Positions 14,350 through 63,888 of a stretch of 64,000 nucleotides of DNA are shown here, one piece after another. This DNA is from a virus (Duplodnaviria; Caudoviricetes): the IMG/VR virus record IMGVR_UViG_2894097338_000001, positions 32,001 through 96,000 of that record, one strand, 5' to 3'. A program made the position numbers and the translations under genes. The first letter of the stretch is position 1, and each line of letters begins with the position of its first letter. Below the pieces are notes generated by a model. It was not told where the DNA came from and did no database searches. It saw only the letters and a program-made list of their open reading frames with translations.

Positions 14350-14579
14350 CTTTTTCTCTCCTTTTATATTTATAAAATCTCCGTTTTATCATCCTACTTA
14401 TAAGGAAGTGCTAGCAATTTTGATCGGCTACCAACTTCCTCAACAGCAGAATTAAAATGTTTCAAATTGATATTATTTTTAACTCGAATACATCCGTTGA
14501 TGTACTCTAAAATTTTGAATGTTGCCATATTTTTAAAATCCATTCGTGCGTCCTTTCTTTATATCCTCTGTTCATTAAT

Positions 14580-14619
14580 AGAATACCATCCGCCTTATTA
14601 GTTGTCAATACTTATGGTT
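14580..14619 (-). promoter_or_regulatory. SigA promoter whose -35 is part of the 19-bp repeated element
   Basis: AACCATAAGTA-TTGACA-17-TATTCT with extended TG. Confidence 0.75.
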
Positions 14620-14623
14620 AATA

Positions 14624-17600
14624 TTAATCAGATAGTTTTTTAAACTTTGAATTACTTGAGTTGCTTAGATCGAAGTCCTTAAGTCTCGTGAACAAGTCAC
14701 TAAAATTAGTTCTCTTCTCTTTGACAAAAGTCTGTTTGACAGCTTTCTTGAAACTTCTTGGTGAAGTTATTAGAATCAGATACTCACTAGCCCGCGTCAT
14801 TCCAGTATATAGTAATTCTCTTGTATTTAATAGATAATGAAATGGCAGCGCGAATATAACGTATTTGATTGTAGAACCTTGAGATTTATGAACTGTAATA
14901 GCATAGCCAAGCTCAATATGTTCAAAGTGCGACTCCAGGACGTTAACAATTCCAATACCTTCAAAATCAATGACTAAGATGTCTTGTTTATCTGTATGAA
15001 TAATTTGCTTAACGGTACCAGTATTTCCATTAAATATTGGACATGGGTTTCCATGAACATCATACATCTTCTTATTGTTTCTCATGTTGATTACTTTCTC
15101 TCCAACATGAACAAAATAGCAACTATCCTCGTCTGCTCCGTCTCTATTTAATTTAATATCTGAGTCAGATTTAGGTTTCTTGTAACCTTTCCTCTTGATG
15201 GTGATATACTCTCCATCCAGGACACCTTTGTTAATCAAAACTCTTTGAGCGAACTTATTGAGATCCCACGTAGATGTTTTACCAGTTGCTTTTGTAGAAC
15301 ACAGGATTTGAACATCGTTAATGTCGTGCTCTTCAATTAGCTTTCTAAAATTAAGCATCACATGTCTAGAAATTTGATCTTCGTCTTTAGGATCAACAAA
15401 AATATACTCTAGATCCTGGTTTTCTCCATAGACTTTAGAACCAATATCAAACTTTAACTCCGTAGGTTTAACTCCATTACGGATTGCAATAGAATGAGTA
15501 ATAATTGCAGACTTCTGAGCCTGTCTATGAATCTGAGTTAATAATTGACTAGGCATTTTACCAGTCTTAATTAATCCAGCCATAATCCCAACTCCAATAC
15601 TTTCAAGCTGCCCCATATCTCCTAACATAATAAGTTTTGCCCCATCTGGTGTAGCTTTTAATACGTCTAAAAACATGAAGATATCAACCATCGACATTTC
15701 ATCAATTACTACAACATCTACAAGCATTTTGTTGTCTTTGTTGTATACGAACCCGCCAGTAATTGGATCTACTACCAGCATAGAATGCAGTGTTGTAGCT
15801 TCTTTTCCAGTAATTAAAAACATATTGTTTGCAGCCTTACCAGATAATGCCCCTTGCTTATACGTCATTCCAGCCTCATTTACTATAGATATGAAGCCAT
15901 TTAGTGTGGATGTGTTATGTGTAACTATATAGTCATTTGTTAGATATAGATGCTCATCATTGTCTACCATGATACACATCATTTCAACCTCTTCTTCCAT
16001 TTCCTCTATATCAACAATGCTTACGCGATCATATCTTTTTCGCTTGACAAAATTTAATGCCTCGATCGCCGTTCTTTTTTTATGCGTATTTCTAAAAAGA
16101 AGCTCCTTCTTATCGTTACTTGTTAGTATATTCAGATTATATTCTATATTCTTCTTATTAGCGCGGTTGGTTTCAGAAACGTTGGACTGTATTCCGAGAG
16201 ACAGCAATACCTCTTGAACATCATATGCAAGCTGCCTGCTATTAGTCGAATACCTTACATTATATCTACCCTCTGCCTTCGAGATACTCCCGTCTGTATC
16301 AAACAAACCTTGTATCAAGGCATATCTTTGATCAATACTACCCATTTTATACTCGATGGGTATTGATTTGTGAATTGAAGTTCTTAATATTTCTGGATAT
16401 TTGGAAAACAACTCTTCTGTCTGGTATCTGTATATCGTATTAATCTGCATATGCCCAAATGAATCCTCTCTTAGTACGGATTTGGGCTTATCAAAATAGA
16501 AATGCCAATTATAATTTTTTGTACTATTTCTTCTATAGTCATTACATCCTATGAGTTTTGAAACCTCTGCCACTACGTCTTCGTCATTACTAGACAGAGT
16601 TAATGCTTTACTTGTACAACTACCGTCACCCAAAAATGCTCCAAGGACATATGGATCAACGCTAAGGTCGCGCTCCCTAAATTCTACAGCTTTATTAGTA
16701 GGAATTTTAAATTTACAATTTCGTTCGCCATTTGAGTAGTTATACAGTCCAGAATCAATGATTTCTCTAAGTGTTCTAGTCTTAAGATTTCCTTTGGATG
16801 TATATGTACTCCATAAATGCTCATCATTAGAAGTTGTCGTTCTTCCGTCTGATAGAGTAATTTTATAATTCTTCTTAAGACCTTGAGGGAATATCTGAGT
16901 TACCATTGTTGGCCTTCCATGTCTATCAAAAATATAGTCGCCAGGCTTCAAGTCTCCAAACCTCCTCATACCTCCAGGAGTCGGAATGATAATGTCCACA
17001 TCCTGCGCCTTCCCTGTCCCGCCATACCCTTGAAGCAAGAATACGTTTTTAGCTATCATCATCTTAATTGATTTTTGCTGCTCTTCACTAAATTTCCAAC
17101 CTTGAGCCTTTTGTACATGTTTAATGACCTTTGCACTGTCTATCAGCCTTTTCAGATTCTTGTTTTCTGAATTTAATAATCTGTTTATTTCATCACACAC
17201 AGCTAATTCAGTTGCCAAAGCCTTAGATGATGTAATTCTAAGCTCTTTGTCCAGTCTATAAACAACATAATTAACGTTTGTTTTTACATGTTCAACAGCC
17301 CACTTAACATCTGCATTGAAAATATTCTCCTTCACCTTGCCAACAAAGTCTTTTGCCGTGATCCACGTATGACCTTCACTATGAAGCTCTTCAAATAGAT
17401 ATTTTATATAAGCCTTGATACGTCTTTTGTCGTTAGGCTTGTTTTCTGGATTATTCAAGAATACAGCGTCAGCTCTCTTAAATCCGTATCCTGGGATTTG
17501 TGTTAATACAAAAGGATCGGCCTCTACCATCATGATAGCTTGCTCGATTCCTCCAAGAGACTTACAAATCTTTTTAACTTGATCCATGCTCAGCTTATAT

Positions 17601-18088
17601 TTTGCAAAAGAAATATATGCTGATGAAAAGTCTTTTTGATTCTCGTAGGATTCAATAAGCTTTTCTGCCGTAGCTAGTCCGATACCCTCAGCCTCCATTA
17701 ACTTCTCAATATCAGCCTCTTCCAACATCTTTATAGGATTGTCGGATACTTCATACAATGCTTTAATCTTAGCTTTCGATAAGATCATGCCAAGAAACTC
17801 TTCTTGTTCTTTTGAACTAGCCGTCATCAAGTCCTTAAATTGACTAAAGGCAATAGGATTAAATGAATCTGGATAGTTTTTATCTCCAGCATTTATCCCC
17901 TTGATATTAAACTCTTTGCCGAGTTCTACTAGGTAGTTACCTTTAACAGAAAATGTTCTAGGTGCCTCGCCTTTTACTCGTTCAAATTTGGCAATCACAA
18001 AGCTTTCCTTACTATAGAGGATCGCTACACATTTTGCAGTGCAGTCGATCTCCTCATATGTTTTGTTTCTATCTACTAATTCATTCAA
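14624..18088 (-). CDS. RecD2-like SF1 helicase containing an intein
   Basis: HhH motifs (GIGLATA, GYGFKRAD), Walker A GYGGTGK/TS split by the intein, IDEMSMVD, GDMGQL, YAITVHKSQGS and LYTGMTRA. Confidence 0.92.
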   Translation of the reverse strand: MNELVDRNKTYEEIDCTAKCVAILYSKESFVIAKFERVKGEAPRTFSVKGNYLVELGKEFNIKGINAGDKNYPDSFNPIAFSQFKDLMTASSKEQEEFLGMILSKAKIKALYEVSDNPIKMLEEADIEKLMEAEGIGLATAEKLIESYENQKDFSSAYISFAKYKLSMDQVKKICKSLGGIEQAIMMVEADPFVLTQIPGYGFKRADAVFLNNPENKPNDKRRIKAYIKYLFEELHSEGHTWITAKDFVGKVKENIFNADVKWAVEHVKTNVNYVVYRLDKELRITSSKALATELAVCDEINRLLNSENKNLKRLIDSAKVIKHVQKAQGWKFSEEQQKSIKMMIAKNVFLLQGYGGTGKAQDVDIIIPTPGGMRRFGDLKPGDYIFDRHGRPTMVTQIFPQGLKKNYKITLSDGRTTTSNDEHLWSTYTSKGNLKTRTLREIIDSGLYNYSNGERNCKFKIPTNKAVEFRERDLSVDPYVLGAFLGDGSCTSKALTLSSNDEDVVAEVSKLIGCNDYRRNSTKNYNWHFYFDKPKSVLREDSFGHMQINTIYRYQTEELFSKYPEILRTSIHKSIPIEYKMGSIDQRYALIQGLFDTDGSISKAEGRYNVRYSTNSRQLAYDVQEVLLSLGIQSNVSETNRANKKNIEYNLNILTSNDKKELLFRNTHKKRTAIEALNFVKRKRYDRVSIVDIEEMEEEVEMMCIMVDNDEHLYLTNDYIVTHNTSTLNGFISIVNEAGMTYKQGALSGKAANNMFLITGKEATTLHSMLVVDPITGGFVYNKDNKMLVDVVVIDEMSMVDIFMFLDVLKATPDGAKLIMLGDMGQLESIGVGIMAGLIKTGKMPSQLLTQIHRQAQKSAIITHSIAIRNGVKPTELKFDIGSKVYGENQDLEYIFVDPKDEDQISRHVMLNFRKLIEEHDINDVQILCSTKATGKTSTWDLNKFAQRVLINKGVLDGEYITIKRKGYKKPKSDSDIKLNRDGADEDSCYFVHVGEKVINMRNNKKMYDVHGNPCPIFNGNTGTVKQIIHTDKQDILVIDFEGIGIVNVLESHFEHIELGYAITVHKSQGSTIKYVIFALPFHYLLNTRELLYTGMTRASEYLILITSPRSFKKAVKQTFVKEKRTNFSDLFTRLKDFDLSNSSNSKFKKLSD
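15914..17008 (-). mobile_element. Class 3 intein (365 aa) with LAGLIDADG endonuclease, in the RecD2 P-loop
   Basis: Starts at Ala (GK|AQDVD) and ends YIVTHN|T. WCT signature present: HLW, MMCIMV, THN. Endonuclease motifs LGAFLGDGS and IQGLFDTDGS. Confidence 0.9.
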
Positions 18089-19863: not shown

Positions 19864-19880
19864 AATATCACTCCTTGCTT

Positions 19881-22188: not shown

Positions 22189-22194
22189 GTTAAA

Positions 22195-22653: not shown

Positions 22654-22690
22654 TATTTGATCTCCTTTATTTGTTTTTCTTGATATATCT

Positions 22691-22730
22691 AATATACTAC
22701 TTAACAATTTAGTTGTCAATACTTATGGTA
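22691..22730 (-). promoter_or_regulatory. SigA promoter with the 19-bp element at -35
   Basis: TACCATAAGTA-TTGACA-17-TATATT. Confidence 0.75.
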
Positions 22731-22776
22731 AATAAAATGTGTGTTTTATCCATTAAAATAAAAAGAAGATCTAGCA

Positions 22777-23241: not shown

Positions 23242-23244
23242 GTA

Positions 23245-25672: not shown

Positions 25673-28600
25673 TTAATTATCTCTCCCTCTCCAAATTGTT
25701 TTACATAATTTTTAAACTCTTTTTTGTATTGATTAATTTGATCTGTTGTAGCTGGAATATAGTTTAGAATGCTATATTCTTCACTTATGAAACTTACACG
25801 AATAAGGCTCGATCTTCTCATAAATCTAACTTTTCTATGGTTGCTTTCAACAATTTTACCGTCTAAAACTTTAGTCTTTTGATTGACTCCGACCACTTTT
25901 CCAATGCCCAATCCAGATACATAAATATAATCATTGATTTCCAGACTCTCTTGAGTCCACGTTACCGTTGTTACTGACTTCATTGTTTACTCTCCTCCAT
26001 TTCTACCTTTTCAAACTTGTCAAAATCATCTTTTAAAATGTCGCGTGCTTGTTTTTCAGTCTTTTTTAGAGAGCCGTTTTTAGAACCTAGCACGTAACAA
26101 TAATTTTCATTGTCGGAGAATTTAAAACTTGTTAGATATCTTTCTTCTTCGAACCAAGCTGAATGTTCATTCTTCTTACGCCAGTAGTATTTCTTATTGT
26201 TCTCTGACTCAAACTTATATCCATTAAAAACCGCAAATGTAATATCGCTCCAATCGCGATCATTTTGAGCTATTGGCATACCAAACTTACCGCTTATTTT
26301 TGACAGTTCGGCTAGTTTAGAGATATAGTTGTACTTTTTTAACTTAAGCATTAATTCATCTGGAATAGATTCATTCATCCATATTGTTTTATTCTTATCA
26401 TCAATTCTCATCTTAGCTCCTCCAATACTGTAACCGTTGCAGAGTATTGGATTGCTCCATCATACTCGTTGATATGTCTCTCAAATGTTATATGCCCCTT
26501 ATCCAGCATTTGCTGTGATAAGTCGATTGCCATTTGAGTTTTAATTGCATTAATGTGTGTTTCGGTTAATGGATGTCTACCTACCTTATATAACCCTCTT
26601 AGTTCGAAAATATTCTTCATTGTCGGATATTTAATTGGCTCAGAAATCGGTTTTAAGGGCTCTTCTACATGGGGGGTATACCCCGTTTTCTCATTTATAT
26701 ATTTTGCAAACTTATGTCTTAATTTCATTATTTAGTCTCCTCCTAATATCGCGGCCTAATACTGTCGCATACTGACTGAATATACTCTCTATCCTCAGAA
26801 AACAATTCTACAATTTCATCGCTCCACTTAGAAACATCAGATCCATACTCTTCCTTAAACACTGCTATGTTTTGGAAAGTAGAATACTCTTCAAATGTAT
26901 TTTCACATATTGGACACAGTATACTGTCTTCTTTTGAAAATGAGCTGCACCTTCTAGCACACAACCTTTGTTTTTCAATATCATCTAGCATCTTTAAACT
27001 GTCTTCGCAGAATGATCTGAACTCCTCTATGTCCATTCCAATTCCTCTAGATATTCTACCCTGTTTAATTGATACAACAATGCTGTTATGCAGAGAAGAT
27101 CCAGCTACGATACGACCGCCATCACTTCTCTCTATTAAAACTTCATGTTTAACATGACCATTTTTTAACACCTTTTTCATAAAAATAATCCTCCATTCGA
27201 TAAAGTGGACTAAATCCACTATTCTACTTCGTTAGCCTCCAGTTTTCTAAACATATGAAAGTCTTCAACTAAGATGTTTAATGCCTCAGACTCTGTTATG
27301 TATGCAGCATCCTTCATGTCTTCTACCGTATCCGCAAAGTAGTTTTTCTCTGATGTTTGTGGATCATCTAAAAGAAAAACTGGTTGAATACAATTCTCTA
27401 ATGATAAAGCCCAGTAATACTTATCTTCTTCTATCTCATATCCGTTTACCCAGGCGCTGACTGCAATAAGGAATCTCCGATCATCTTCTTCTTGGCTGTC
27501 ATTGCTAAACAACCATCTTTGAACTGCTTTTGGCATAGGCTCATTGTCATTCCATGCAAATACTAGATTAAGATCGCATCCAGCTTCTTTTGTCTCTTTG
27601 ATATAATCTGCCATAAACCTTGGTATTAAAACTTTATTTCTTTCCATATTTATCACTCAACCTCTTCTAAACCTGTTTAGTTTTTAATTTATCGCCACAC
27701 ATTGGACAATACTTAATTGTTCCGCTGCAGCTAAATGAGCTATCTACTGAGTATGCATCGTAGCTAATCTTTAGTCTGTTCATACGAACGAATACTTTAA
27801 GTCTTGACGAAAAATATTCTCCGTCTTCAAACTCAACCACTTCAATCGCCTCTTCATTTTCACAGAATCCACACATAGACTTGCCCTCCTTCTGTCATTG
27901 ATGCCTCTTTATAAAAGACGCATTTTATTAACCGATTATTTAAACTTTTTGTAACTTCGTTTTAAATCTTTTTTACGCACAATCTGCTCTATACCATCGG
28001 AATTACGAAATACCCTACCTCCAGTTTTTTGATAAATCTCACCAGTCCACATTACTACATCCCCAGTTTCAAATAAGTGAAAGCAAAATGGCTCTCCTTC
28101 TACAATCTCATATCTTCTATCCATATATTTCTTCTTTTGACGTTTATTCATTTTTTTCACCATCATCTTTCTCTGGCACATTGTATCTTTTCGCCTCACC
28201 AGTGTGCAGGTCTATATACCCAATTTCTAGATAGGTAGAATCATTGCCTCTCAAACAATAGCGTGCAGTTTTTTCTAAGATGCCACTTTCTGATGGCGAT
28301 GTTTCTATAATAGACTCAATCCCACTGACGCATTCAGTGTCAAATAAGAGCCATAATTTAAGATGTGTATCTTCTACTGGAGCTGTTATGCAAGTGATAT
28401 CAGATATTTTAATATTTCTTGTTTTGTCTGCACTGCTAAGCATTTCATACCTCTTTCTACTGCTTCTTATAAGCAGCCTTTAATTTACTTCCTCTTGTAA
28501 ACATAATTTGTGTATACATGACAACCATTGGTTTCTTGTATTTCATTCTTATAGCCATGCCAACTGAAATCCAGTCACTTCCTGTATATTTCATTAACTT

Positions 28601-30757: not shown

Positions 30758-33700
30758 TTATTTATCTTTCTTTTTTGCATCGAATAATTTGTTCTTACGA
30801 ATAGATTTAAGTCGTTTAACCCAGTATTCCTTTTTGGTTTCTGATTTAACCCATTTAGATCCAACTAGCTCATTCTTAGGCTTGTTTTCTCCTTCTACAA
30901 TTTCAATTAAATCTCCTGGTTCAAAAGGAACATTATTGTAAAGCTTCGATCCGACCTTGATTTCAACCATTTTGCCATGTTTGATATTAAATACTCTGGC
31001 GGTTGTTCTCGTTTTTCTGACAATTATATCAGTAACAAAAGCATATTTTCCAGGAATGTGTTCGAATGATGTTGTAACTCGACCAGTGTAGAATAGTTCG
31101 TTCTCAAGTGTTTCTACGGCCTTATAGTCATCAATCTTTTTACTATTGAAAGCATCTAATATCATATTAAAGTTCTTGAATTTACCTGCATACGTTTTGT
31201 TTTTTGGTTTATATTTATTATTAAATAATTCATATGCAGTCATTAATTGTTTAGGATTTCCAAATTCTGAAAAGTAGTTTAATTTAATTAATGGCTCCAT
31301 ATTTCTCTTATCTAAAGATGGAAGTGGAGTACCAATGACTTCATACTTATCTGGATTGGCTTTAATATCCTTGTCTAGTGCCTTAACTTCCTCTTCTGTA
31401 TACGTTGTGTAAATTTCGTACAAACCTTTAACTTTACCATCAATTACTAAGCTTGTACCATCTTTGATACGAAGCATGAACTCAATCCAGTTTTTAAATT
31501 CTTCATCTTTTAATGAATATAAATCGTCTCCAGATCTCATATTACAGTTCTTAATAGGTGAGGTTCCTTGATAGATTGTTTTTGTTTCAGTATCCATGAA
31601 GTATTCACCTTTTGAATATCTGAATTTTGGTTTTTCTAGTTTAATATTTTTAGATTCAGCATATTCTAAAAGTTTAACCGTTTTCTCCTGATCTCCGCCC
31701 CATACAATTAAACCTGCAGTACAAAATTCAACTGGATAGTAGTATCGTAACCATGTACAGATATATCCAATATAGCTATATGCGGAGGCGTGATTAATGG
31801 AGAAGCCATAGTTTACTGAGTCTAGGAATACTTGTACAAAGCTGTCTGCAACTTCTGTAGCATGTTCTTCCGTATCTCCGTATTTTTCTACCATCGTTCT
31901 AATGAATGACGGTTTGATTTTAGGAACTTCTTCATCCATTATTTTATGATCCTTTTTCGATTGTTGTTAACCTGTAGCTTTTTATCTACAGCTCTGGAGG
32001 TTTCCCTCATTTCCATCTGACGGTCATTTCCGCCCCAGTCTAGCATACATTTCCACCCTCGTTTAACGTTAGGCTCTTTTGAGGTATCTTTTATAAAGAT
32101 ACGTGAGGAACACTCGTGGTGGCATTATATTCTCTTGCGAGGTTCAGCCACTATGCGTTACGGTATCAAACGGCTTTATCCCTTTTGATTACCTCGGTAT
32201 TAACATATTGATTATATACTTTCGTAAATTTTTGAAATTTTCTATCTAGCCAAAATATATCCTTTGAGTAATATAAATACTCATATAAAGCCAACACGTC
32301 TCTTATTCTACTAATCCTTAGACTAAGTATGTTCGAACCATACTTACTCATATCAACTAAGTTGTTGGCACTCTTGGTTAAAACATATTCGTTTTTGAGA
32401 ATTTTATCTAATGTCACTCCGAACTTCTCATCCACGCAAAATGCTGCATAACCTTGACAATTATCAACGCTCTTTACTTTTCCTGTTATAGTACCGTCTC
32501 CATCAAAATAACCTCTAATAAAGTCTGGATAGAACCTTTTAGGAATTTCTGGAAACTCCAGGTTGGCACATTGTTTACCCTTTACAACGTTATATTGTTT
32601 AAGATCATTGACAATATCAATGGATCCCAGATAGCAAACCGTATACAAGTGGCCTCGTCTTTCATAATCTTTCTTAACAGCAGTTGGACAAATTTCTGAG
32701 ATAATAAAATCAATTATCTCCTCATCCTTTTTTGCACATTCAAGACGTAACAACTTTCCAGTAACTCTTCCATCTGCTGTTAGGTATCCTAATACGTAGG
32801 CCTTATTTGAGTTGTCGATTTCTTTAAAGTAGTCGTGAACGGTATTTCTATTATAATTCCCCCTTCCCTGTCCTCTGGAGTATCCACCGTTCTTTACTGT
32901 CAACTCAATTGTTTTTTGGTTACACCTTTCCTTGAAATGTCTCTCCCAAATTTCAACAGAGTTTAGATATTCCTCGCAGTACAGGGTCTTAACCAGGTCT
33001 TTCTCTTTGGCTGTCAGAGAAAAAGCGCTTGTTCTTCCACATTTTTTAAGAAATCGTCCAATCGTCGTATCACTTCTATTTAAGATATTGGCTATATCTA
33101 CATTTGTATATTTTTCATCATTTAATTTAAGTATAGTTTCTTTCTCACCATCTGTGAGTAATGTTCTTTTCGTCATTTATACGCTCCTTAAGAGTATATA
33201 ACCAACTTAGTCTCCACCGATTTTGCTCCTTTACGACTAGATGTTTCCATTCTAGCTAGGCAAAAATTTACCGATTCCTCGTCTTATTAAGTCAGCCTGT
33301 GCTGTACTCCAGCCACAAAACTCTTCTAAGAACGCGGTCTGTTGTTCTTGATATACTAAGTATCCAAGTGTATCTTTAAAGAAATCATTAAGTGCCTCAT
33401 GACCATTGTCGTGAAACTCACCCATTAATATTGAGTCAATCGTTGATGCTCCCGACGGCCTTTGCGCAGCGTTCAATAGGCTTAACAGGTCTATCATTTT
33501 TAAATCTGGATTCTGTTTTCTAATCTTAGAAATAACCTGCGGCTGAAATAGATCTTTTACCAGTTTTCCAGCTCTAACACCTTCAAATTGAAAAATTCCA
33601 ATATTTGACTCCCTCATTGAATCCCATACTTTTTCATCCTCAAAGTCTATTATATCCGTTGAGTCTGGAGTTAATCTAGGTAGCCCAACTAAATCTGCAG

Positions 33701-47891: not shown

Positions 47892-48254
47892 CTATCTGTA
47901 ACCCTTAAAATTGTCGTGTTTTATTATATATTCTAAACATTGATTTAGTGTAAAAAATACATCCTGCTTATGATAGCCGCCTCTCAGCTTCTCATTGTTG
48001 TCATGATTGGAAAAGTTAGAGTGCTTAAGTGTGACAACCTTGTTATCATGTTCTATATACCAGTAACCAAATGAAGTTTTTATAACTATGCATTGAGATC
48101 CATCTTTAATTGAGAAGTCCTTGATATTGTTTCTATCAAGAACCTCCTTGACATACTTTTCACTCCAGTTACTTATTCCATGAGAGTTCTTTCTTATGTG
48201 AACCTCTCTCTTCTTTATGCGTTCTTTTCTAATCTGACTATTGGTTTTTCTCAT
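47892..48254 (-). CDS. Basic hypothetical protein
   Basis: ATGA overlap with the recombinase gene. Confidence 0.6.
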   Translation of the reverse strand: MRKTNSQIRKERIKKREVHIRKNSHGISNWSEKYVKEVLDRNNIKDFSIKDGSQCIVIKTSFGYWYIEHDNKVVTLKHSNFSNHDNNEKLRGGYHKQDVFFTLNQCLEYIIKHDNFKGYR

Positions 48255-49339
48255 TGTTCTACGATTAACCCTTCCGCGTAGTGTCTATTCTCTGCTTCTC
48301 TAGCTATAGCCATCGCCATAGCGTCATCACCTTTTATGATAGATATAAGCTGTTCTTTTGAAAGATCTTCCAGCTTATCCTTATCTACATCCAATGAAAG
48401 AACATATCCACCTTGCTTTGTTCTATCGTCTCCAAGTCTAATATATTTAAGTGTTGTCTTTGGATCTTCATGATCTAGGAACTCCATTGTTCTAACTAAA
48501 TCTTGTGTTCTGTTGTAATATTCTGTACCAGCACCAACTTTGATCGAGTGAGGAACGTATTCTTTTCCAACAAGTTCTCCATATTCGCTAGTCAATCTTG
48601 AAAACATTTGACTACTTATATCTTTAAATACTGGCTCGGTTCTATCTCCGTGGTAAAACTCTTTGTAGATTCTGTCATATAATGAAGATGGTATAGCTTT
48701 CTTGTTAACCTTATTACCTTTATCAAGAATATATGCATTCCATCCAAAATTATGATAAGAATCTCCTTCCCATACAATGTCTGCCCATCTTACTTTTTTA
48801 AACACCGCTGTTAATCGCGACGCTGTCTTAAACATAAACTCGGCTGCTAGAGCATACTTATTACCAAGATCTGCATTTCTGCCTGTAAAACGTTCTTCTT
48901 TAAGCCATTCAATAAATTCATAAAACTCACTAGCTCCAAGCTTAGCTCTGGATACTGTATCATCTGAAATGTTTCTTGTCTCTAAGCATGAGATCTTTAT
49001 ATAAGACAAGTCTATTAACTGACTAAAATCTTTAAATCTCTCCATGTGCGTTACGAATGATCTAATAACACGAATGTAGTATTTAATTGTACTGTTTTGT
49101 AACCCTTGTCTTTGTAGCGGTTCGATAAAATTGTTTCTTACATCAGATGGCTTTAAATTCATCCAATGTGCTTCGTTCATTTCTGGTAGTGCACTGATCT
49201 TGAATGTCATTTTTGCGAATGTATCAAGTGATTTAAAGTAACTAACTTTTGAATTGTCGCTTTCCATTCTATTCAACCAGTCTGTAACTACGGCGTTTAA
49301 TTCCATCTTTGTTTCTTCCATTGTTTTGACACGTCCCAT
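48251..49339 (-). CDS. Tyrosine recombinase (YopP-like)
   Basis: SAM-like N-terminus. Catalytic positions TASR, DKGNK, PHSIK (K in place of R), LDHED and TLKY. Confidence 0.85.
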   Translation of the reverse strand: MGRVKTMEETKMELNAVVTDWLNRMESDNSKVSYFKSLDTFAKMTFKISALPEMNEAHWMNLKPSDVRNNFIEPLQRQGLQNSTIKYYIRVIRSFVTHMERFKDFSQLIDLSYIKISCLETRNISDDTVSRAKLGASEFYEFIEWLKEERFTGRNADLGNKYALAAEFMFKTASRLTAVFKKVRWADIVWEGDSYHNFGWNAYILDKGNKVNKKAIPSSLYDRIYKEFYHGDRTEPVFKDISSQMFSRLTSEYGELVGKEYVPHSIKVGAGTEYYNRTQDLVRTMEFLDHEDPKTTLKYIRLGDDRTKQGGYVLSLDVDKDKLEDLSKEQLISIIKGDDAMAMAIAREAENRHYAEGLIVEQ

Positions 49340-49408: not shown

Positions 49409-49604
49409 CACGCTCGCCACACTTTTTTAAATAAATATGCCCCTCCTCAAACAAACGTCTTTAAATCAACGTTGTCATAAGTAATATGCGCCCAAAAATA
49501 ATACAACACTTATTACTTACCCCTCCTTTAGGTGATTATTTAATATTTATATTCACCCCTTTTAGCATATTAAATTGATATATAAAATGACTGTTTTATA
49601 AATT

Positions 49605-50755: not shown

Positions 50756-50759
50756 TAAA

Positions 50760-53370: not shown

Positions 53371-53428
53371 ACTTTCGAGAGAGTGCTTATGCGCTCTCTT
53401 TCTCTTTATAAAACCATTCTTTTACCAG

Positions 53429-55152: not shown

Positions 55153-55213
55153 AACATACTTGAAAGTATGTTTTTTTTGATAAAATCATTGTTTTATCAA
55201 CAACGATAAATTT

Positions 55214-58200
55214 CTATTTAATTCGCCCTTTTATAATTATCCATGACAATACTGCAAAAGGTGTTATTTCGCTTATAGCTCCCAAAACTCTTAAAATGGT
55301 TGTAAGTATATAGCTTGGAATGTAGGAAGCTGAAAATAACACCAGTCCAGCTATTACATATATCAAAATCGGTATTATGTTATTTTTTAATAAACTCATT
55401 TTTCATTCTCCTTTATATATCCATCATTCCAAAAGGCGTAACAGCTATACCTTTCATTTCCATTCTCTTCTTGCAATCGTCTATATTATCGAAAGCGTAA
55501 CTAGCTCCCCAATATGGAGCATATCGACCATCTTTCATGTAAATGGCTTCTCCTTTGTATTCTTCCACAAAGCGCTTTTCTTTGATGGACTTACAGGCTT
55601 CATGGAAGCAATCTGAACAATACGCACCAGTAGATGAAAAGTCCAAATCTCTTACTATCCTAGCTTCTCTAATAACAAATGAGTGCATATTAAATGGTTT
55701 GGAGCAATTGTTACAACTTAGCTTGTGCCTAACCTTTTTCTTCTCCATATCTTTTCCTACTTTCTAAAATGATTATTTTAATAACATTCTCTGCATAACA
55801 CTTAATACCCAGCTATAATTTTTCATTCTAACTAAGTCATTAGATAGATCTTCTAAGCTAAATTCTTCAGAACATGAAGAGACGCTCCTTACTGTACGCT
55901 TACTTATAGACCACGTTGTTTCCAGTAAACCTGCATGAATAGTAATATTCATACTGTGATCCTGGACTTTGACATATATAAGATCTCCCTTATTCTTCAT
56001 AACCTCTTCTACGATAACATCTTTAATATCTTCGAATGTTGTCATTAATATCAACCCTCTCTCTATTTATGCTTGATATACTCCCTCAATCTTCCATAAT
56101 TACCTTTTTACTATCTTTATACTTTTTACTATTCATCTTATCTACCACCCATTACTTCCATGGAACATTTCATCGTCTGGAATTGGTTCCACATAATACT
56201 CTCCGTCACCCTCATTAACTTCTTCAATAACTTCAACTGGTTTAAGTTTAAAAATCCTCCATTTACCATCAAGCTTATCTCTAAACTCATTAGCTGCTTT
56301 TTCAGATGTGTGAATATGATTTTCCAATCTAATTTTCCGTTTCCGCAATCTCTTGCAAGTATATGAAAGTCTGGTTTAATTGCCATTCTTAAAACGCTCC
56401 TTCCACTTATGGTTGTATTCTAGGTGCCACCATCGACTGTCGTCTATCCAGTGAGCTTCATCAATTTTATTTTTAAGAAACAAGTTTTTTATTTTGATCC
56501 AAAACATTCTTGATGAGTAGTCGCTGCTTTTTCTGTATAATTCTTGTATTTCTTCTTTAGTCATTTCCATAGCCTACCATTTCCATATCCCTTTTTGCTT
56601 CTTCATCCAGTCTTCTACTTCATTAATGCTCTCCAGGAAATCTATAGATAAAACAAAGTTAATATCGCTAAGGACACTTTCGGTATACTTAGATTCTAAT
56701 GTGCCATCGGACAGATTTAGTACCGTAACTTTATCGTCATCATCTTCGCAATCAGTTATCATATACATACCAGATACATCTACAACGACATTTCCTGGCT
56801 TTAGAACAGATATATATTCCTTTCTCATTTTGACGACTCCTCTACTATTTCCAAAATATCGTCGATGATACCATTGATCAAGCCTTCATGTGGCCAATCA
56901 ATTTCTTTAATTTTATTGTCTCTGTACTCATTAATTTTTTTAGAAATATCATCCATTTTAATTCCTCCTAGTCATTTTCTTTGTTTTGAAAATACTTGTC
57001 ATAAGTTTCTTTCGTGGCATTAATTTTATTTAAGTCAATATCGTCATGCCACTCAAACTCATTTGACTCGTCCTCTCCGACGATTAAATCAGCTCTCCCC
57101 ATATAGCCTCTTTCAAAAAGGTGAGATAACTCACCTTTGAAAGCTTCTTTGTTTTCAATTTGATCATTCGCATCAACATAATAAACGGTTGCTTTGTATA
57201 CTTTAGCCATTGTACATTCCTGCAATTCCACTGATTAGTTCGACTCTATAAGTAGTATCTCTTAGGCTGTTGTAGTATTCGTCAGATTTCTTTTCCATTC
57301 TAAGGAATGATGCAGCTTGTTCATCATCATCTTTTACAAGTGTAATAAAGATATGTCTCCATCCATCCTCATCAATATTTTTTGGGTTGCTAATTTTAGA
57401 TAATAAATCCTCTGTATATTTAATATCTCGATCCATTTCATCCATAGCTGCTTCATAAGTCTTCATCTTATCTTGAGGAACTTTATCAATGTTTTCTCTA
57501 GATTCTTTCAATGATAACCTAGTGTTGTCCGCATCCTCTTTTAGTGATTTAGAAATGATTTCAATATCTGATTCTGTAATACTTAATACATTTTTTGATC
57601 TAGACATCCAGGTTACCTCTCCGTTTTTATTCTCATAAATAAGGCTGCTTGGAATTTTACTTTCTTGCGCCTCAATTCTTTCTGCTTCGATTTTTAATGT
57701 ATATAAAATAGCTCTTTGAACGATTTTAATTGATTTCATCCAGTCATCACCAGTAAAGATAACTGTTAGGTCACGTCCGTTATAGTTAATTTTTGACTCT
57801 ACATCTGGCTTATCAATAGTTTTTAAATATTGAATCGTATCGAACCATCCTTGTGCCGTAGATTGAATGGCTCCAACAAATTTATAATCCTTTTCTCCAG
57901 GCTTAACCTGCTCTCCTACAGTATAATTTCCTCCCAGACTAAATACACAAAGAGTCAAATCTTTTCTACCCTCTACTAAAATGTCTCCTTGTCCGAATAC
58001 TACTTTCATTTCCTCTGCGTTAATCATATAAGTTTCCCCTTTTATTTTTATAGTAAAAATTCTTTTTTATTCTGCCCTTTAAATTCTTTTTTCCATGTCA
58101 TAAATAAACGATGAAAAAGTTCTTTTATTGAACTTAATCAACCTTGTAAGATTATCCTTATTAGGTGGCTGAGCATATGCGCCTTCAATAACTATGCCAC

Positions 58201-58537
58201 GTTCTTTAATTCTTAAGTAACCATTGTTGTCAAAGTCACGATCGTAATAATCATCATAATCTGCCTTTATAGAATCGGCTTCAATTGGTTTAAAGTCTGT
58301 CCAGCACTCGTCAGATATCTCTTTTAATGAATCTAGTAATTTCTTAAATTGATCTGACGTAAATTCATAATCATTTTTAAGACCTTTGCCATCAATGTAA
58401 ATGCCGCCACGAGGATGCTCTTTTAAGTCGCTGTCTTCGTATCGCTTCATAAAGAATACTGCTGATTTCCTATATTGAACTATTAAATCTACTCCATTTG
58501 TATCAGTAAAGATAATTTCTTTTAAACTCTTACTCAT
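55214..58537 (-). CDS. Array of small early hypothetical genes
   Basis: Densely packed ORFs with RBSs (e.g. 55413-55748, 57203-58027, 58079-58537). Confidence 0.55.
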
Positions 58538-58765
58538 AATTTCCTCCGTTGATGTACTTTTTAAATAGAATCTATAATAATAGTTCTACATTCGCCTTTG
58601 CTTTCTTTTACGGCCTCTTCCAGATCCTTGAATACATTATCACTGTTCTCGTTAGTAAGTAGTGATTTGTTAGTCTGATATAATCCACACGTATCAATTA
58701 CTATATCTGTAGGAAATACTACACCTTTCATAAATGACTTCCTCCTTATAAAATGTTCATTTTAT

Positions 58766-59209
58766 TTACATAACTTTTATTTCAGAAATAACATTCTTAT
58801 TAGATAACTCTACAACACCGTTAATGATTAATTTTGATATTAAACAGTTATTGAAAGGAACCGTCGTATCTTCGTCTATCTCCAATCTATAACTTACAGA
58901 TTCAATATCATATACAACCTTAGCGATATATTTTGATCCATTTGTGTATGTAATAAGTACATTGTCTCCAGAATAAATTTTTTCTCCTTCAACATCCGTC
59001 TTCCCTATAAACTGGCCGATAGTATCTCCATCGACTATTGCATGTCCATCGTAATCCGTTAAATCTAAATACCAATTTCCTTCTCTTCCAGTTTCCTTCT
59101 TGTAGTCATCTGAAAACTCTACGAATGACAATCCAGTTCCAAATACCCACTGACCTTTTAAGTCTCCGCTTGACACCATTCCTTTAAAGCTTGGTTCGAT
59201 AAATTTCAT
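58766..59209 (-). CDS. YopX family protein
   Basis: WVFG and TIGQFIGKTDVEGEKIYSGD. Confidence 0.8.
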   Translation of the reverse strand: MKFIEPSFKGMVSSGDLKGQWVFGTGLSFVEFSDDYKKETGREGNWYLDLTDYDGHAIVDGDTIGQFIGKTDVEGEKIYSGDNVLITYTNGSKYIAKVVYDIESVSYRLEIDEDTTVPFNNCLISKLIINGVVELSNKNVISEIKVM

Positions 59210-59542
59210 TTTTATAACTCCTTAATAAATTTTTCTGTTTCTAATACTCCAGTCAACTCCAGTAACCCCATAGCAAATGTAATGACTTGATCTTTTGTCA
59301 TCTGATCATTTACTCCATGATTAATAAGGATAAACTCTAGATCATCTGCCTCGTAATCGCTTGGTTTGTAATGACGCATTTCAGCTGTAATATAATTTCT
59401 TTTGTTTGTAGCCCCAGATCTTAATATCGCAACTCGATTATCTTCATGTTTTGGCATTCTTTCTACCTCCAATTTGCTCGTTTGTATAAGTTGATATCTA
59501 GAGAATCAATCTCGAGGAAAAATTCTCTAGATTCGGGACAAT

Positions 59543-60262
59543 TTATTTTTTCACTTCAAATTTTGGACTCTTAACTCTTGCTGTCTTCTCAACGATTCTA
59601 AAACCTTTGTCGTATTTTCCAAGACCAAAGCTATAGTAGAAGTTTGTGCTAAAGTAGTCGATCATACCGTCGCTATCGTCGTATCTATAAGACATAAGCT
59701 GCTCGAAAACATCATTTAATACTTCATATCCAAAATCATTTAAGATAGGCATTTCCTCTCTATCTCGCATTCTATGAATATCAATGTTAATTCCACCTGC
59801 TTTAAAATCTTCTCCTTCTTCGTGATCGTAAAAGTCTACGTAGCAGTTATCTTTAATCTTGTCGCGCTCTAGAATTTCATAAGGGGCCTCCATTGCTGCC
59901 ACGCTGATAGAAGATCCTCCACTATAGAATTGACATGTGATACTGAATTTCCAAGTCGGATAAACTTCTTTTACATATTTTCTTAAGTTTGCTGCAATTT
60001 CTTTTGTTCCAAGATTAGAATTATACTGGCTACCAGCCCATCCATATTGAGTGTAAAATTCAGATCTTGTGCTGCTAGCTGTTTCTGTTGTTTTGACTTT
60101 ACTCTTCGTTTTCCAAATCGGGAATAGCATATCGTATTCATTGTTAATTTCTTTAATTACTGAATCGTCTCCGCCAGTAATGTCTGGATGATGCTTTTTC
60201 GATAATTCTCTAAATTGTTTCTTTAAATCATCAAATGATTTAACTCTCTTAAAATGTGCCAT
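59543..60262 (-). CDS. J-domain (HPD) protein fused to an LPD29-like domain
   Basis: LKKQFRELSKKHHPDITGG; KEIAANLR...FS and YRYDDSDGMIDYFSTNFY. Confidence 0.75.
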   Translation of the reverse strand: MAHFKRVKSFDDLKKQFRELSKKHHPDITGGDDSVIKEINNEYDMLFPIWKTKSKVKTTETASSTRSEFYTQYGWAGSQYNSNLGTKEIAANLRKYVKEVYPTWKFSITCQFYSGGSSISVAAMEAPYEILERDKIKDNCYVDFYDHEEGEDFKAGGINIDIHRMRDREEMPILNDFGYEVLNDVFEQLMSYRYDDSDGMIDYFSTNFYYSFGLGKYDKGFRIVEKTARVKSPKFEVKK

Positions 60263-60280
60263 GTTAATCTCTCCTTTTTA

Positions 60281-60364
60281 ATTGTAAATACTTATGGTTC
60301 TTTGAAACTTTTGCTGATGAATGAATCATAACACTATATACTTTTGTTGTCAATGCTTATGGTT
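60281..60364 (-). promoter_or_regulatory. Promoter with two 19-bp elements (one at -35, one in the leader)
   Basis: TTGACA-17-TATGAT (60353-60325). Copies at 60346-60364 and 60281-60299. Confidence 0.75.
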
Positions 60365-60374
60365 AATATTTTTT

Positions 60375-63300
60375 TTACATACCAAAAGATTCTTCTGCAG
60401 CTTCAATCATTTCTGATTCGTCATTCTCTCTTACCTCTTTGATATACTTGTCAAACATAGATAAAAACTCTTCAAGCTTATATAATTCTTTTACTGCAGC
60501 TGTTCTCTCATTGTGACAAGTATCAATTTCTTCTATCTTATAAGCATGTTTTATTTGACGACCCATTATTTCAACCGTAACTTTTCTATCTTCGATTATC
60601 TTCAAAATGTCTTCTCTACTCATATTTATTTTCCCTCCTGGATAATTTCTTTATTTTCTTGACTATTTCCATCTACGATAATTTTTTCTTTTCGTCCAAG
60701 CTTGTACATTACACTCAATCCCATGTCGTTACCTTCGTACACTGATCTGTAATGGTCGGCTAACATATCCGCCGTCATTATATCCCAACACATAGCAAGC
60801 TCTATTCCTTTGTGATTCTCTATATTATTATCCACCAACATGAATTTATGTTTTCTTCTCATGATTAACTCCCTCTTTTCTTAATTTGTAATTTAGTTTT
60901 TAGCTTAAATGACTCGTAACTCTTCTGTCTAATTCTATCAGCAAAATCTCCTATGTGACTTGTAAGTGGTATCCAATTTCCCTCCTTAGTTAATCCATAC
61001 ATTGTAACATTTCCCTGCTGTAGTCTAAATTCCTCTCTCTTAACCCCTGCGAACTCGCATAACTCTTCTACCAGTCTTTTCTTTTCTTTATTCATTACTG
61101 ACTGTGTAGTGAACTCAATTGACTCAAATTCAAACATTTTCTATTCCTCCTTTATTTTTCATCCATAATTTCTTCAATTTCTGAAATCTCACCATCGCTA
61201 TATCCTAGCTCGTTTAAATATTTTTTATCCTCTACACTAAGCTCTTCGCAACTTCCCAAGAATGAAAAACACTCATTAGTGATTGTTTCTGTTGTACTAT
61301 TTTTGTCTACATCAAACCTCTTAAACCATGCTCTTAAACTCATATTAACCTCTCCTTATTAAAAGTTTTTCTCCATAAGACACTCATAATATGAATGCCT
61401 TAGCAAAAATTCTTTTTATTCCTGTCATCTTTTATACTTTGAAGCAAAGATGACTTGCCCCATAAATTCGATATATTCTTCTCTCTTAAAGCCATCTATT
61501 TTAACTTCTACCTCGTGAGTTGAATCAAGTTGTTCCCTATCATATAAGTTATTCTGTTGATAATTACCTATTAAATACTCTGTATTATCTCTTTTGATTC
61601 TCTTTTCTGGTTTAAAATAATTTTTCTCTGTTTCTGAATGATAAACTAAATATGGTTTTTCTTTAAAAATCTTCATGATATATTCCTACTTTCTAAAATA
61701 ATTGTTTTATCTACATTTCTATTCCACATCTTTTCTAAAATTAACTATCATGTATTCAATCCATTGCTCTGGTGTGCTTCCGTATGTATATCCGTTGTAA
61801 CTACACTGTTTCCACATATTAATACTTATATTTTGACTTATTTCATTTTCTGTACAATTGTGTTCTTCCAACTTTTTATTTAGAATTTCCATATATTCAT
61901 CTTCGGATACTTCGACTTTATAAGAGTCTCTTCCTGTTTCGTACTTTGACTTGATGACCTCTATTCTCATTTCAATTCCTCCAATAAATTCTTTTTATTT
62001 GTGTAATTTTTTATCTAGTTAAAATTCTATATTTGTACATATCTCAAAAGCTTCATGATTAGTAAATTTATCCATTGCCCACTTTTGAAAAGAATAGATA
62101 GCTTCACTTTTTGTAATTAAACCTCTATCAAGTAAAGATTTTTCTTTATTGTATCTTTCATTAACCTCGCTATTCTCTGCTAAATCTAACAAGTGTGTAA
62201 AGTTATATTTTTCCATTTCAATTCCACCTTTATTTTATTTTTCTTGATAAAAGAAATATTCTATCAATCGTGTTCGCTTTGTTCTGCGATTATTTCCGCC
62301 TTTAATTTTTATTTTTTTATTAGTCTTCTTTTGAATTTTCAAAATCTTCGATTCGTTTCATTGCGATGTTTACTCCCACCAGTAACGCATTATCATTCTT
62401 GATTTGATCGACAGTCATTCCAAGTGCTTCAATAGCAGGATCAGCGTCATAAGTATATCCATATTCATGGTTGTTTAGCTCGTACTCAAACATATCTGCG
62501 ATATATCCTGTTCCGTCTTTATCTTCTGCGATATTTCTTTTTTCTTCTGCCCTTATCTCTTCAAACATTTTTTCATAAGCTTCTGCGTCAGTTTTTCTAA
62601 TGATTCCTCCACCTGCAATTGATAACACTTTGTCTTTGTCGTCTTTTGTAAGGCCTAAATCATTCATTGCTTCCTCGAATTGTTTTTCATCAAAGAAGAA
62701 TCTCATAGGAAATTCGTTTACTCGTTTTTGATGTCTGCTTTTCATTTCTGCGTATTTGTTAGTCATTTTATTTTCCACCTTTATTTTTTAGTTTTTGTAT
62801 TCTTTATATCTAAGTTCATATCCAATATTTTCCGATGTTTCTATGTACCACTGTTCGTGGTCTCGATAATTTTCTTTTGTTTCTGACTGACTAGCTAGGT
62901 TTTTCATAAAATTGTCGGCCGCTTCAAAGTCTTTATAATTTGTCGATGTTTGGCCGCTCATTGTTGATTTTATTATTACGGCATTTTCTAATTTCATGAT
63001 GTCTCCTTTCGATTTTTATTAACCTTGCTTATCACTGCGTTTCGCATTTAATAAAATTTCTTTTTATTTCTGACAATAATTATTGCTGACCGACAATTAC
63101 TTGTGGACGATTATTTAATTGGTATAACATTACTACTTGATTAATATAAGACTTCTTCTTATCTAATTTATTAGCTACCTCTAATTGAGTTAGTCCATAA
63201 GATAATAGATGTCTAATGTCATTCGCTAGGTTTGACGTTTTGTTCTTTCCGTTTTCACTCATTCTTGTTGCTAAGGCCAAGTAAGCTGATAGATTATTGT

Positions 63301-63888
63301 TTTCGCCTTTTACATAAGATACTTCTGTAATAATTCCATTCTGCTCTAATCTCGCGATTGTCTTAAGTCCTCCAACAAATTTTCTGTTCTCATAAGTCAC
63401 GTTGCCACCATTTAATTTTGTAATATCAAACCCTAAATTTTTCATTTTTCTTCCTCCTAAAATTTCTTTTTAATGCTGCCCTACATATTTGTGTATTTAA
63501 CGTTTTCTCTAGCTCTCATAGTTAGATAAAATTCAATTTCATCATCGTTGTAGCGTCCATCATAAATATCTGATAAGCCTATATTTGCTTTTCCTTTAAC
63601 CTCTTCTGCAATTTCTTTCATTCTTTCCTGTGTCATCTTTATTTCCTCCTAGATTAATTTCTCTAATGATTTTTCTAATACTAAAGCTTCTACGTCGTCA
63701 TATGTGTAGTCAGTTAGGAAAAATTCTAAATCTTGCTGACCATCTGTCACACCGTCTAGCCACTTCTCAACAAACTCTCTTTCAAACGCGACTACCTTCT
63801 CGACACCTTTTTCTTCATAGTATAAAATTACTGGGTTTATAATCATCTTGTTTCCTCCTAAAATTTTTTTAATTGCTCCATAGAACAC
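60375..63888 (-). CDS. Array of small early hypothetical genes; 63080-63445 has a C-terminal HTH
   Basis: ORF track; GLTQLEVANKLDKKKSYINQV. Confidence 0.55.

Follow-up and report, generated by a model that had tools for sequence, protein, structure and literature searches.

Palindromes with a strict 6-bp centre as probable crossover joints in SPbeta-like phages and plasmid-prophages

What is the role of a short palindrome that recurs at gene junctions, and within some genes, of a large phage-plasmid? The question arises from a 64,000-nucleotide stretch of the IMG/VR record IMGVR_UViG_2894097338_000001 (Caudoviricetes), hereafter the window, which spans bases 32001-96000 of a phage-plasmid contig (C54; 122,341 bp, 35% G+C) that belongs to a 2.88-Mb genome with about 38-39% G+C. 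An examination of the window from its letters alone (hereafter, the sequence-only reading) had noticed repeated ATAAAA-N6-TTTTAT palindromes and suggested that they are crossover sites for a phage recombinase, forming an integron-like system, or else plain binding sites for a dimeric protein. The motif, its conservation, its selection at the DNA level and its coincidence with breakpoints between related genomes are observed here. With good confidence, we consider the palindromes to be preferred crossover joints, and we lean, by a modest degree, to the more specific view that they are conserved, individually addressed DNA joints of SPbeta-like phages and plasmid-prophages that fit exchange by a phage Xer-type enzyme.

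The palindrome is far more frequent than expected by chance, and its excess is tied to one spacing. The window contains 7 exact copies of ATAAAA-N6-TTTTAT, compared with a mean of 0.08 and a maximum of 1 in 100 dinucleotide shuffles; tolerating one mismatch raises the count to 14, where 2.3 +/- 1.4 would be expected. The whole genome holds 11 exact copies, 9 of which are on the contig. For spacers of 3 to 9 bp, the exact counts on the contig are 0, 2, 1, 9, 0, 0 and 0, whereas those in the remaining 2.76 Mb of the genome are 3, 6, 7, 2, 6, 4 and 7; three permuted control palindromes occur 0-2 times each on the contig. The motif core sits within a 24-bp palindrome, tTGATAAAAT-N4-ATTTTATCAa, in which the 6-bp centre is strict, the TAAAA/TTTTA core is invariant and the arms are conserved over 9-10 bp in the family of the window. 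A symmetric weight matrix made from the sites of seven related replicons, the contig included, yields 125 sites at a score of at least 14 with the true spacer, compared with 5, 5, 0, 3 and 2 with shifted spacers; 16 of these matrix-supported sites are on the contig and 12 are in the window. Outside the contig, the 2.76 Mb of the host genome contain 4 weak matrix hits at the true 6-bp spacer and 16, 7, 19 and 8 at shifted control spacers. Because the host chromosome is nearly motif-free, the motif is unlikely to define a host regulon, and its binder is presumably a product of the element itself; accordingly, the regulon of a host transcription factor was rejected as a candidate (4 weak host hits against 7-19 at control spacers). 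As a separate observation, the smaller number of chromosomal hits at the true than at the control spacers may reflect avoidance of the motif.

The same palindrome, with the same spacing, is found in a set of related replicons. The contig combines phage structural genes with a replication module of the DnaE type and genes for ParA and two tyrosine-recombinase-like proteins. The DnaE proteins of 108-138-kb plasmids from Limosilactobacillus reuteri (two), L. mucosae, Ligilactobacillus salivarius and Vagococcus fluvialis share 49-55% identity with that of the contig; the DnaE of a 126-kb Liquorilactobacillus mali contig falls within the same range, and the identity to Bacillus plasmids and large Bacillus siphoviruses is 43-49%. 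All six Lactobacillales relatives carry the motif: the exact N6 counts in the seven replicons, C54 included, are 9, 7, 9, 8, 6, 4 and 8, for a total of 51, compared with 0-2 at every other spacer. Among these relatives is L. salivarius pMP1046B, whose description, in the accessible part, demonstrates that it is circular, proposes it as a candidate chromid and does not refer to the repeat (PMC4165912). In SPbeta (NC_001884), TAAAA-N6-TTTTA occurs 34 times compared with 0-3 times at other spacers, and the arms extend to 11 bp (TYTRRATAAAA) such that the layout is 11-6-11. The sequence-only reading had pointed to the geometry of tyrosine-recombinase core sites, and this is borne out by the inverted arms and the strict 6-bp centre, with the 11-6-11 layout in SPbeta. 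The 162-kb plasmid of Bacillus amyloliquefaciens contains 27 exact copies, B. wiedmannii contains 5-7, and B. velezensis about 6, near background; TAAAA-N6-TTTTA ranks top among 5-mer palindromes in C54, SPbeta and the B. amyloliquefaciens plasmid. Among clostridial plasmids, that of C. tetani has 0 copies and those of C. difficile and C. perfringens have 2 and 6, respectively, mostly with A-run centres. Altogether, two or three Bacillus plasmids share the motif, and of the 11 related replicons that were examined over their whole length, 9 show the spacer-specific enrichment.

Away from this set, the 34 IMG/VR loci that were matched through ORF (open reading frame) 59543..60262 are at most 45% identical, and the 20 unrelated IMG/VR phage contigs that were scanned contain 0-1 exact sites each. 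No close relative of the window was found by megablast against phages or in phage, plasmid and species-genome collections, and the DnaE is encoded in 0 of 35 genomes of the host's family. The palindrome is not described in the literature that was searched, which excluded the 1999 SPbeta genome paper and all supplements; the only match to the half-site string is an unrelated likeness to the Vibrio LuxR/OpaR boxes.

Most copies follow closely on a stop codon, and about 29% are inside ORFs. With ORFs called by a simple custom script, here and in the codon and junction counts below, 79 of the 125 sites are located between co-directional genes, 8 at convergent and 2 at divergent junctions, and 36 lie deep in ORFs. 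Junction sites usually begin at -4 to +13 nt relative to the upstream stop codon, which often is the TGA or TAA of TTGATAAAA, and end 12-80 nt ahead of the next start; the layout is the same in the B. amyloliquefaciens plasmid, where 26 of the 27 sites are intergenic. The copies in the window, with their matrix scores, are the following.

257..274: palindrome with exact core, inside ORF 4..1320 (+ strand); score 24.0
14372..14389: palindrome downstream of the RecD2-like helicase ORF 14624..18088, next start 22 nt on; score 23.7
22732..22749: palindrome 27 nt past the stop of a PemK/MazF-like ORF; score 20.1
27911..27928: palindrome between ORFs 27936..28199 and 27667..27876; score 23.7
38929..38946: palindrome with one core mismatch, in a DnaB-like helicase ORF at relative position 0.56; score 22.2
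49582..49599: palindrome 5 nt past a guanylate-kinase-like ORF and 242 nt upstream of the YopP-like gene; score 22.3
53408..53425: palindrome at a convergent junction, end of a 324-bp V. fluvialis-like island; score 23.2
55180..55197: palindrome at a convergent junction, best-scoring copy, homology edge for three sequencing runs; score 27.2
55764..55781: palindrome with two core mismatches, left boundary of the 3-kb stretch for which a relative has other sequence; score 17.8
58748..58765: palindrome abutting the stop of ORF 58766..59209, right edge of the replaced segment; score 21.1
61693..61710: palindrome sharing its right arm and a 10-nt flank with 55764, where the homology of a relative ends; score 20.7
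62247..62264: palindrome with one core mismatch; score 18.9

This set overlaps in large part with that of the sequence-only reading. All six perfect copies listed there (14372, 22732, 27911, 49582, 55180 and 58748) are present as written, and so is the 17-bp flank common to 55754 and 61683; copies 53408 and 55180 indeed abut the two reverse-oriented genes. A seventh perfect copy, at 257 in ORF 4..1320, had been overlooked. Among the near-perfect copies, 53408, 55764, 61693 and 62247 are retained (scores 17.8-23.2) but 58053 fails the matrix. The variants with 5-bp spacers at 23783, 63051 and 63457 are at background level by both the spacer counts and the matrix, so that the mazF module, thought to be bracketed by 22732 and 23783, has a supported site on one side only (22732). 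All copies had been placed at gene junctions and none in the core replication block, whereas 2 of the 12 window sites, and 36 of the 125 over the seven replicons, are deep in ORFs, and site 38929 (score 22.2) is inside the DnaB-like ORF.

The copies inside ORFs are informative with regard to selection. They recur at the same relative position of orthologous ORFs across genera: for example, the L. mali and V. fluvialis orthologues of the ORF with site 257 carry a site at 0.19-0.20, and the V. fluvialis orthologue of the ORF with site 38929 carries one at 0.57. At these positions, codons that keep the motif are used despite differing amino acids, and orthologues without the site use other synonymous codons. 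Shuffling of synonymous codons in 602 ORFs (100 shuffles) yields 4.46 +/- 1.95 sites, with a maximum of 10, compared with 32 observed; at a score of at least 18, 1.48 are expected and 24 observed. This excess indicates that the palindrome is selected as nucleic acid and not merely as an intergenic feature.

An RNA hairpin between cistrons, whether it terminates transcription, directs processing or insulates translation, would suit the placement of the sites, which in co-directional arrays lie past the stop codon and ahead of the Shine-Dalgarno sequence; furthermore, the GenBank record of SPbeta labels one copy 'stem_loop'. We nevertheless regard this explanation as hardly credible. The stem is invariant and consists of A/T pairs, compensatory changes are lacking, and in-ORF copies on either strand are selected. 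The two halves vary independently outside the core, the commonest combinations at pair 0/19 being G-A (20), G-C (18) and T-A (15), and on the sense strand G.U is not favored over A.C (12 vs 20 at pair 7/12, 11 vs 11 at pair 1/18 and 5 vs 12 at pair 0/19). No T-run, that is, no U-tract in the RNA, follows the stem; true GC-rich terminators adjoin copies 53408 and 55180 instead. Given the independent halves, the absence of a G.U bias and the lack of a T-run, we read the element as a protein-recognised DNA palindrome.

Several specific roles were considered for such an element and rejected. An intrinsic terminator is at odds with the all-A/T stem, and a consensus scan of 46-64 kb listed 6 terminator-like sites, not one of which falls on a palindrome. 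The half-site TGaTAAAAT resembles an extended -10 promoter element, but the two halves are equal, there is no sense bias and start codons are too close; promoter-like hexamers are as frequent as in shuffles (87 vs 82.5), and the sites have no fixed relation to them. A promoter for YonO was set aside, a single start site in the late operon being reported in the available part of the source (PMC5467207). With respect to ParB/parS, ParA is encoded at C54 107694-108602 and there is no matrix-supported site within 2 kb of it, the nearest being at 105368. Cyclisation of permuted genomes packaged by the headful would need even spacing, but in 10 of 11 replicons the sites are spaced no more evenly than chance would give.

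The sequence-only reading had proposed to ask whether breakpoints of gene gain, loss or replacement fall in the palindromes, and they do so both in relatives of the window and in the SPbeta group. Four public DNA runs hold parts of the window between 53 and 63 kb; their contigs were compared over 44001-64000, and the comparisons given here are the best-supported ones. Pieces that start at 55181 (runs X2 and X3) or end at 55186 (X5) have 2-3 differences from the window per 600-950 bp. In one X3 contig, the matches to 55181-55784 and to 58742-60298 are separated by 3.5 kb of other sequence, such that both edges of the replaced segment are at sites, 55764 and 58748; a second X3 contig stops at 61710, which is the end of site 61693. 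In X5, a joint from 53427 to 54113 begins 2 nt past site 53408. Other contig ends are off supported sites (52098/52424, 56230, 56560/56825, 57380-57975, 62314 and 63447). An island of 324 bp shared by C54 and V. fluvialis at 91% identity spans both arms of site 53408 and then stops, with the four central bases of the site differing between the two. Site 61693 has the same centre as V. fluvialis site 62412, which adjoins a homologous gene, and the centre of 62247, together with a homologous left flank, is found at V. fluvialis 62155. The two L. reuteri plasmids are 84% identical over 77 kb; one of them, from FN041, has a 1.28-kb insertion with a full site on one side and a half-site on the other. 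In the first genome of this pair, a breakpoint is present in 8 of the 12 site-bearing junctions compared with 42 of the 129 others (p 0.026).

In the SPbeta group, many relatives at 92-99% identity are available for such a comparison. We aligned SPbeta 84-134 kb, which contains 22 sites, with 43-48-kb stretches of phi3T, SPR, BUCT082, Goe13 and BUCT083. The 55 replacement or indel events have 110 ends, 27 of which are within 12 bp of an SPbeta site, whereas the sites with a 12-bp margin cover about 2.3% of this region by our own estimate. When sites in either genome are counted, both edges are site-bound in 5 events, one edge in 24 and neither in 26. Breakpoints occur in 14 of the 18 site-bearing junctions and in 23 of the 79 others (odds ratio 8.5, p 2.5e-4); the odds ratio is 29 (p 3e-5) when both flanking ORFs are shorter than 250 aa and 20 (p 1e-3) when they are shorter than 150 aa. 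Within the site-bearing junctions, 13 of the 17 breakpoints are inside the 28-bp site, whose share of these intervals is 30% (p 1e-4). At site 92753, the left side is changed in phi3T and Goe13 and the right side in SPR and BUCT083, with the centre constant, and phi3T has a 1041-bp insert with a site at each edge where SPbeta has a single site.

At 19 distinct boundaries, a site is present in both genomes, and in 18 of these the 6-bp centre is identical. Across the successive parts of these sites (flank, outer arm, TAAAA, centre, TTTTA, outer arm, flank), the identity is 0.32, 0.51, 1, 1, 1, 0.96 and 0.88 where the homology extends to the right (n=12), and 0.90, 0.90, 1, 0.88, 1, 0.48 and 0.30 where it extends to the left (n=7), which places the switch between the outer arm and the centre. 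Thus, by comparative evidence, partners share the centre (18/19) and the crossover is within the site, as in core-type sites. In phi3T-SPbeta hybrids, 16 recombination sites, 15 of them in homologous regions, are reported in the accessible part of the account (10.1101/2020.05.06.055103), the one non-homologous junction being placed 'following yosA'.

The centres themselves may act as addresses. Among matrix-supported sites, no centre is shared within any replicon compared with 2.2 expected (P 0.11); for the more loosely defined core sites, there are 4 duplicates within replicons against 3.05 expected. Across lineages, 28 centres are shared compared with 10.2 expected, often with flanks that cannot be aligned and next to non-homologous genes, and most of these pairs are not accompanied by detectably homologous genes; one centre recurs in L. 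reuteri, V. fluvialis, L. salivarius and L. mucosae. Shared centres with unrelated flanks fit sites that outlive their flanks; the alternative is a sequence preference for some centres.

Together, the architecture and the matched centres fit phage Xer-type strand exchange. Under the proposed mechanism, each copy would consist of two inverted arms, with the invariant TAAAA next to a 6-bp centre that serves as the copy's own address. Related genomes would recombine inside the sites such that the genes on one flank, left or right, are replaced as a block and the site remains with its centre. The strand exchange would be carried out by a phage-encoded Xer-type recombinase, for which there are two candidates.

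48251..49339, - strand: YopP-like Xer-superfamily tyrosine recombinase, putative enzyme for the sites
C54 17205-18269, outside the window: YomM-like recombinase, in the tail operon

That a tyrosine recombinase makes these joints is, in our estimate, an even prospect at best, and we infer from sequence comparison both the binding and cutting of the sites by such an enzyme and the identity of that enzyme. The product of ORF 48251-49339 has Pfam integrase hits below the cut-off only. A profile of nine orthologues matches XerC-like, XerA, XerH and XerD structures with E-values of 1.6e-13 to 1.8e-10 and SPbeta yopP with 1.1e-45, and the protein retains the residues R, K, H, R/K, H and Y. All ten motif-bearing replicons tested, the B. 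amyloliquefaciens plasmid among them, encode strong homologues (E <= 1e-45), as does the weak-motif plasmid of B. velezensis; for 3 clostridial plasmids without the supported motif and for 14 IMG/VR contigs, the hits are generic (E >= 2.6e-13) or absent. In both L. reuteri plasmids, a site is located 218-226 nt upstream of the YopP-like gene, comparable to site 49582 in the window. SPbeta YopP contains a domain of the XerC superfamily and is reported to be a core gene of SPbeta-like phages with no assigned role, according to the part of the source available (PMC8612738). Hence the assignment of the sites to the recombinase at 48251-49339 by the sequence-only reading gains from its Xer-superfamily membership, its homology to YopP and its co-occurrence with the motif, and its use of the sites stays conjectural.

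The YomM-like protein is an equal candidate. It scores 57 bits against a Pfam Phage_integrase cut-off of 27.1 and is the most conserved protein of the family (58% mean identity), and its gene ends in a site in both L. reuteri plasmids. Used as a query, it finds a weak match (E 9.8e-6) in SPbeta at 40334-40642, which is a few hundred bases away from site 39886. As a universal binder of the palindrome it was rejected, because this query does not find it in the B. amyloliquefaciens plasmid. Separately, two genes downstream of the YopP-like gene, the 421-aa ORF 46601-47866 (- strand) has a weak, below-cut-off hit to the N-terminal core-binding domain of MrpR (E 0.0018) and occupies the place of yopQ/yopR in SPbeta; it may encode the element's master repressor, with operators of its own.

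A number of observations weigh against exchange by a dedicated recombinase. Neither edge is at a site in 26 of the 55 SPbeta replacement events, and 23 of the 65 distinct breakpoints are inside ORFs. The five SPbeta relatives share ancestry, so their events are not independent; the junction tests use distinct breakpoints. The association seen in one genome of the L. reuteri pair is null in the other (4/13 vs 38/133, p 1.0), and the uniqueness of centres within replicons is not significant. With regard to the enzymes, the second catalytic Arg is replaced by Lys in most YopP-like orthologues, and the YopP-like protein is only about 32% conserved across the family; with the query used, no YomM-like protein was found in the B. 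amyloliquefaciens plasmid despite its 27 sites; and B. velezensis pBvelV314_2 encodes both recombinases, yet has about 6 sites, near background. Finally, recombination through short homology in the 16 identical bases could yield the same pattern of breakpoints.

The last consideration is related to the alternative mentioned at the outset, namely, that the palindrome is the binding site of a dimeric phage protein, either a global regulator or a nucleoid or replication factor, at which general or single-strand-annealing-protein (SSAP)-type recombination crosses over occasionally, as a by-product; a process of this kind has been proposed for the PeSL cassettes of T4-type phages. We deem this unlikely but to be taken seriously. 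The half-sites are symmetric and independent, and the centres of the conserved pentamers are 11 bp apart, which suits a helix-turn-helix dimer; sites in conserved core ORFs are selected even where no exchange is seen; and the phages encode AAA_24/Sak4-like and Mre11-like recombination proteins. Roughly half of the SPbeta replacement events bypass the sites, and the same group of phages provides a precedent in MrpR/SroF, a protein with the recombinase fold described, in the accessible text, as a pure DNA-binding repressor of a repeated element (PMC10516654, 10.1101/2025.11.27.690993). However, beyond replication and packaging proteins and the YopP-like protein, no regulator was found in all motif-bearing replicons, and the sites follow stop codons, 12-30 nt from the next start, without a fixed relation to promoter hexamers. 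The centres are kept at boundaries (18/19) and recur with unrelated flanks, which is unexpected for a spacer that is not read, and arms of 11 bp are very short substrates for homologous recombination.

A strict version of the integron-like proposal, in which single genes with a 3' palindrome are excised as circles and inserted at other palindromes, appears improbable to us. The sites do follow stop codons like attC, identical centres occur in different gene contexts in four genera, and both the 1041-bp phi3T insert, with sites at both edges, and the insertion between a site and a half-site in L. reuteri FN041 have the expected form. The attC site, in contrast, is a long, imperfect palindrome of variable length with conserved R''/R' boxes, whereas the sites here are fixed, perfect palindromes of 24-28 bp, many of which are positionally conserved, including those in core ORFs, and the integron-like label is not supported; no attI or Pc was seen, though no search was aimed at them. 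Furthermore, the nine-orthologue profile favors Xer structures over IntI4 (1.6e-13 compared with 3.6e-8), and no circles were found among the contigs, the sole data at hand. The centres of matrix-supported sites all differ within a replicon, so canonical site-to-site exchange inside a genome would be blocked.

Returning to Xer-type exchange, we suggest tentatively, as an idea that is somewhat more doubtful than not, that the palindromes form a genome-wide set of heterospecific sites at which a dedicated phage Xer-type enzyme swaps blocks between co-resident relatives at matching positions. If so, this would be a natural form of recombinase-mediated cassette exchange that preserves gene order, and copies in conserved ORFs would permit portions of core genes to be swapped in frame. 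The palindromes would then be the physical form of the 'linker' sequences that Botstein's modular theory of phage evolution reportedly postulates. Enzyme-driven, addressed crossovers would explain how accessory genes are freely reshuffled without loss of synteny in large temperate phages and phage-plasmids of Bacilli; they would also give a function to YopP and YomM, the orphan core recombinases of SPbeta, and provide a natural set of orthogonal recombination sites for engineering. The window extends the motif from Bacillus prophages to circular plasmid-prophages of lactobacilli, Vagococcus and its own host, and adds the arm consensus of Lactobacillales, the selection inside ORFs seen by codon shuffling and the co-occurrence with YopP-like proteins.

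Some features of this family of replicons are of interest in their own right. The DnaE-type polymerase of the window is encoded in two ORFs on the - strand, 33252..35357 (701 aa), which has PHP, NTPase and finger domains, and 30758..31939 (393 aa), which has a weak HHH_6 hit, with a 336-aa ORF, 32166..33176, between the halves; the relatives have one ORF of about 1100 aa, and the arrangement may represent either an inserted element or a genuine split. The RecD2-like helicase (14624-18088, - strand) contains LAGLIDADG/Hom_end domains in the middle of the protein, at residues ~576-669, which suggests an intein. Outside the window, at C54 115373-117893, two terminase-like ORFs, 263 and 357 aa long, are separated by a conserved 84-aa ORF on the opposite strand; the longer one has a weak hit to Terminase_6C, the Pfam domain of the terminase nuclease. 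The window also encodes a Fic/DOC-family protein (4619-5866, - strand) and the PemK/MazF-like toxin (22777-23241, - strand), and L. reuteri p53608_1 likewise has PemK-like and Doc-like genes. A 6.7-kb tail/host-recognition block, C54 6729-13453, is 92% identical to V. fluvialis p12B2_c1 21609-28332, although the two plasmid-prophages otherwise have no alignable DNA in common, and has no end near a site; this points to a recent exchange across genera.

How does the palindrome compare with known systems? We class it neither as an integron or intrinsic terminator nor as an SPBRE or parS. It shares with integrons the position of the site directly after the ORF but differs from them in site structure, and the YopP-like recombinase is nearer to Xer than to IntI. 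SPBRE is a dispersed repeat in the same phage genomes, bound by MrpR/YopR/SroF, a protein with the tyrosine-recombinase fold that is encoded in the same operon as YopP, as described in the accessible parts of the reports (PMC10516654, 10.1101/2025.11.27.690993). The repeat upstream of aimR, yopM and yopV reads AAAtACAAAaAATATGTATAta; it is 26 nt long, asymmetric and unlike the palindrome. According to the same partly accessible reports, SPBRE occurs at ~10 promoters compared with the 34 palindromes of SPbeta, a comparison made without the published SPBRE logo. The MrpR operator was rejected as an identity for the palindrome given its different sequence and the absence of any of the 34 SPbeta palindromes upstream of yopM or yopV. 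The two families can be neighbours: upstream of aimR in SPbeta, a palindrome at 76171-76186 is 11 bp from an SPBRE-like repeat at 76197-76222.

Xer/dif systems (XerA, XerH and XerS) and Cre/lox of P1 are alike in having inverted arms and a 6-bp centre, and the centres shared at boundaries here are what strand exchange requires; there, however, a single site serves resolution, whereas here there are 10-34 sites per replicon with differing centres, some of them in ORFs. Compared with Xer, the candidate YopP-like enzyme also has, to judge by the aligned orthologues, Lys in place of the second Arg in most cases. In the pdif/dif modules of Acinetobacter (PMC6449649), as far as the available text goes, multiple Xer-type sites likewise bound shuffled accessory modules, but the enzymes are the host XerC/XerD and the two arms are unlike, whereas here the arms are symmetric, the candidate enzymes are phage-encoded and the host chromosome is nearly motif-free. 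In the PeSL of T4-type phages (PMC2839356, PMC4122927), the accessible descriptions similarly report a short repeated motif that borders small accessory genes and at which indels and replacements end; those are composite promoter-terminators that are thought to act through homologous recombination. The palindrome, in contrast, shows neither character, the early promoter combined with a stem-loop terminator being absent and the extended -10-like half-sites being symmetric, and it has a strict spacer and centres of its own. Judging from these partly available accounts, the Acinetobacter pdif/dif modules and the PeSL cassettes of T4-type phages are the closest to the palindrome in role.

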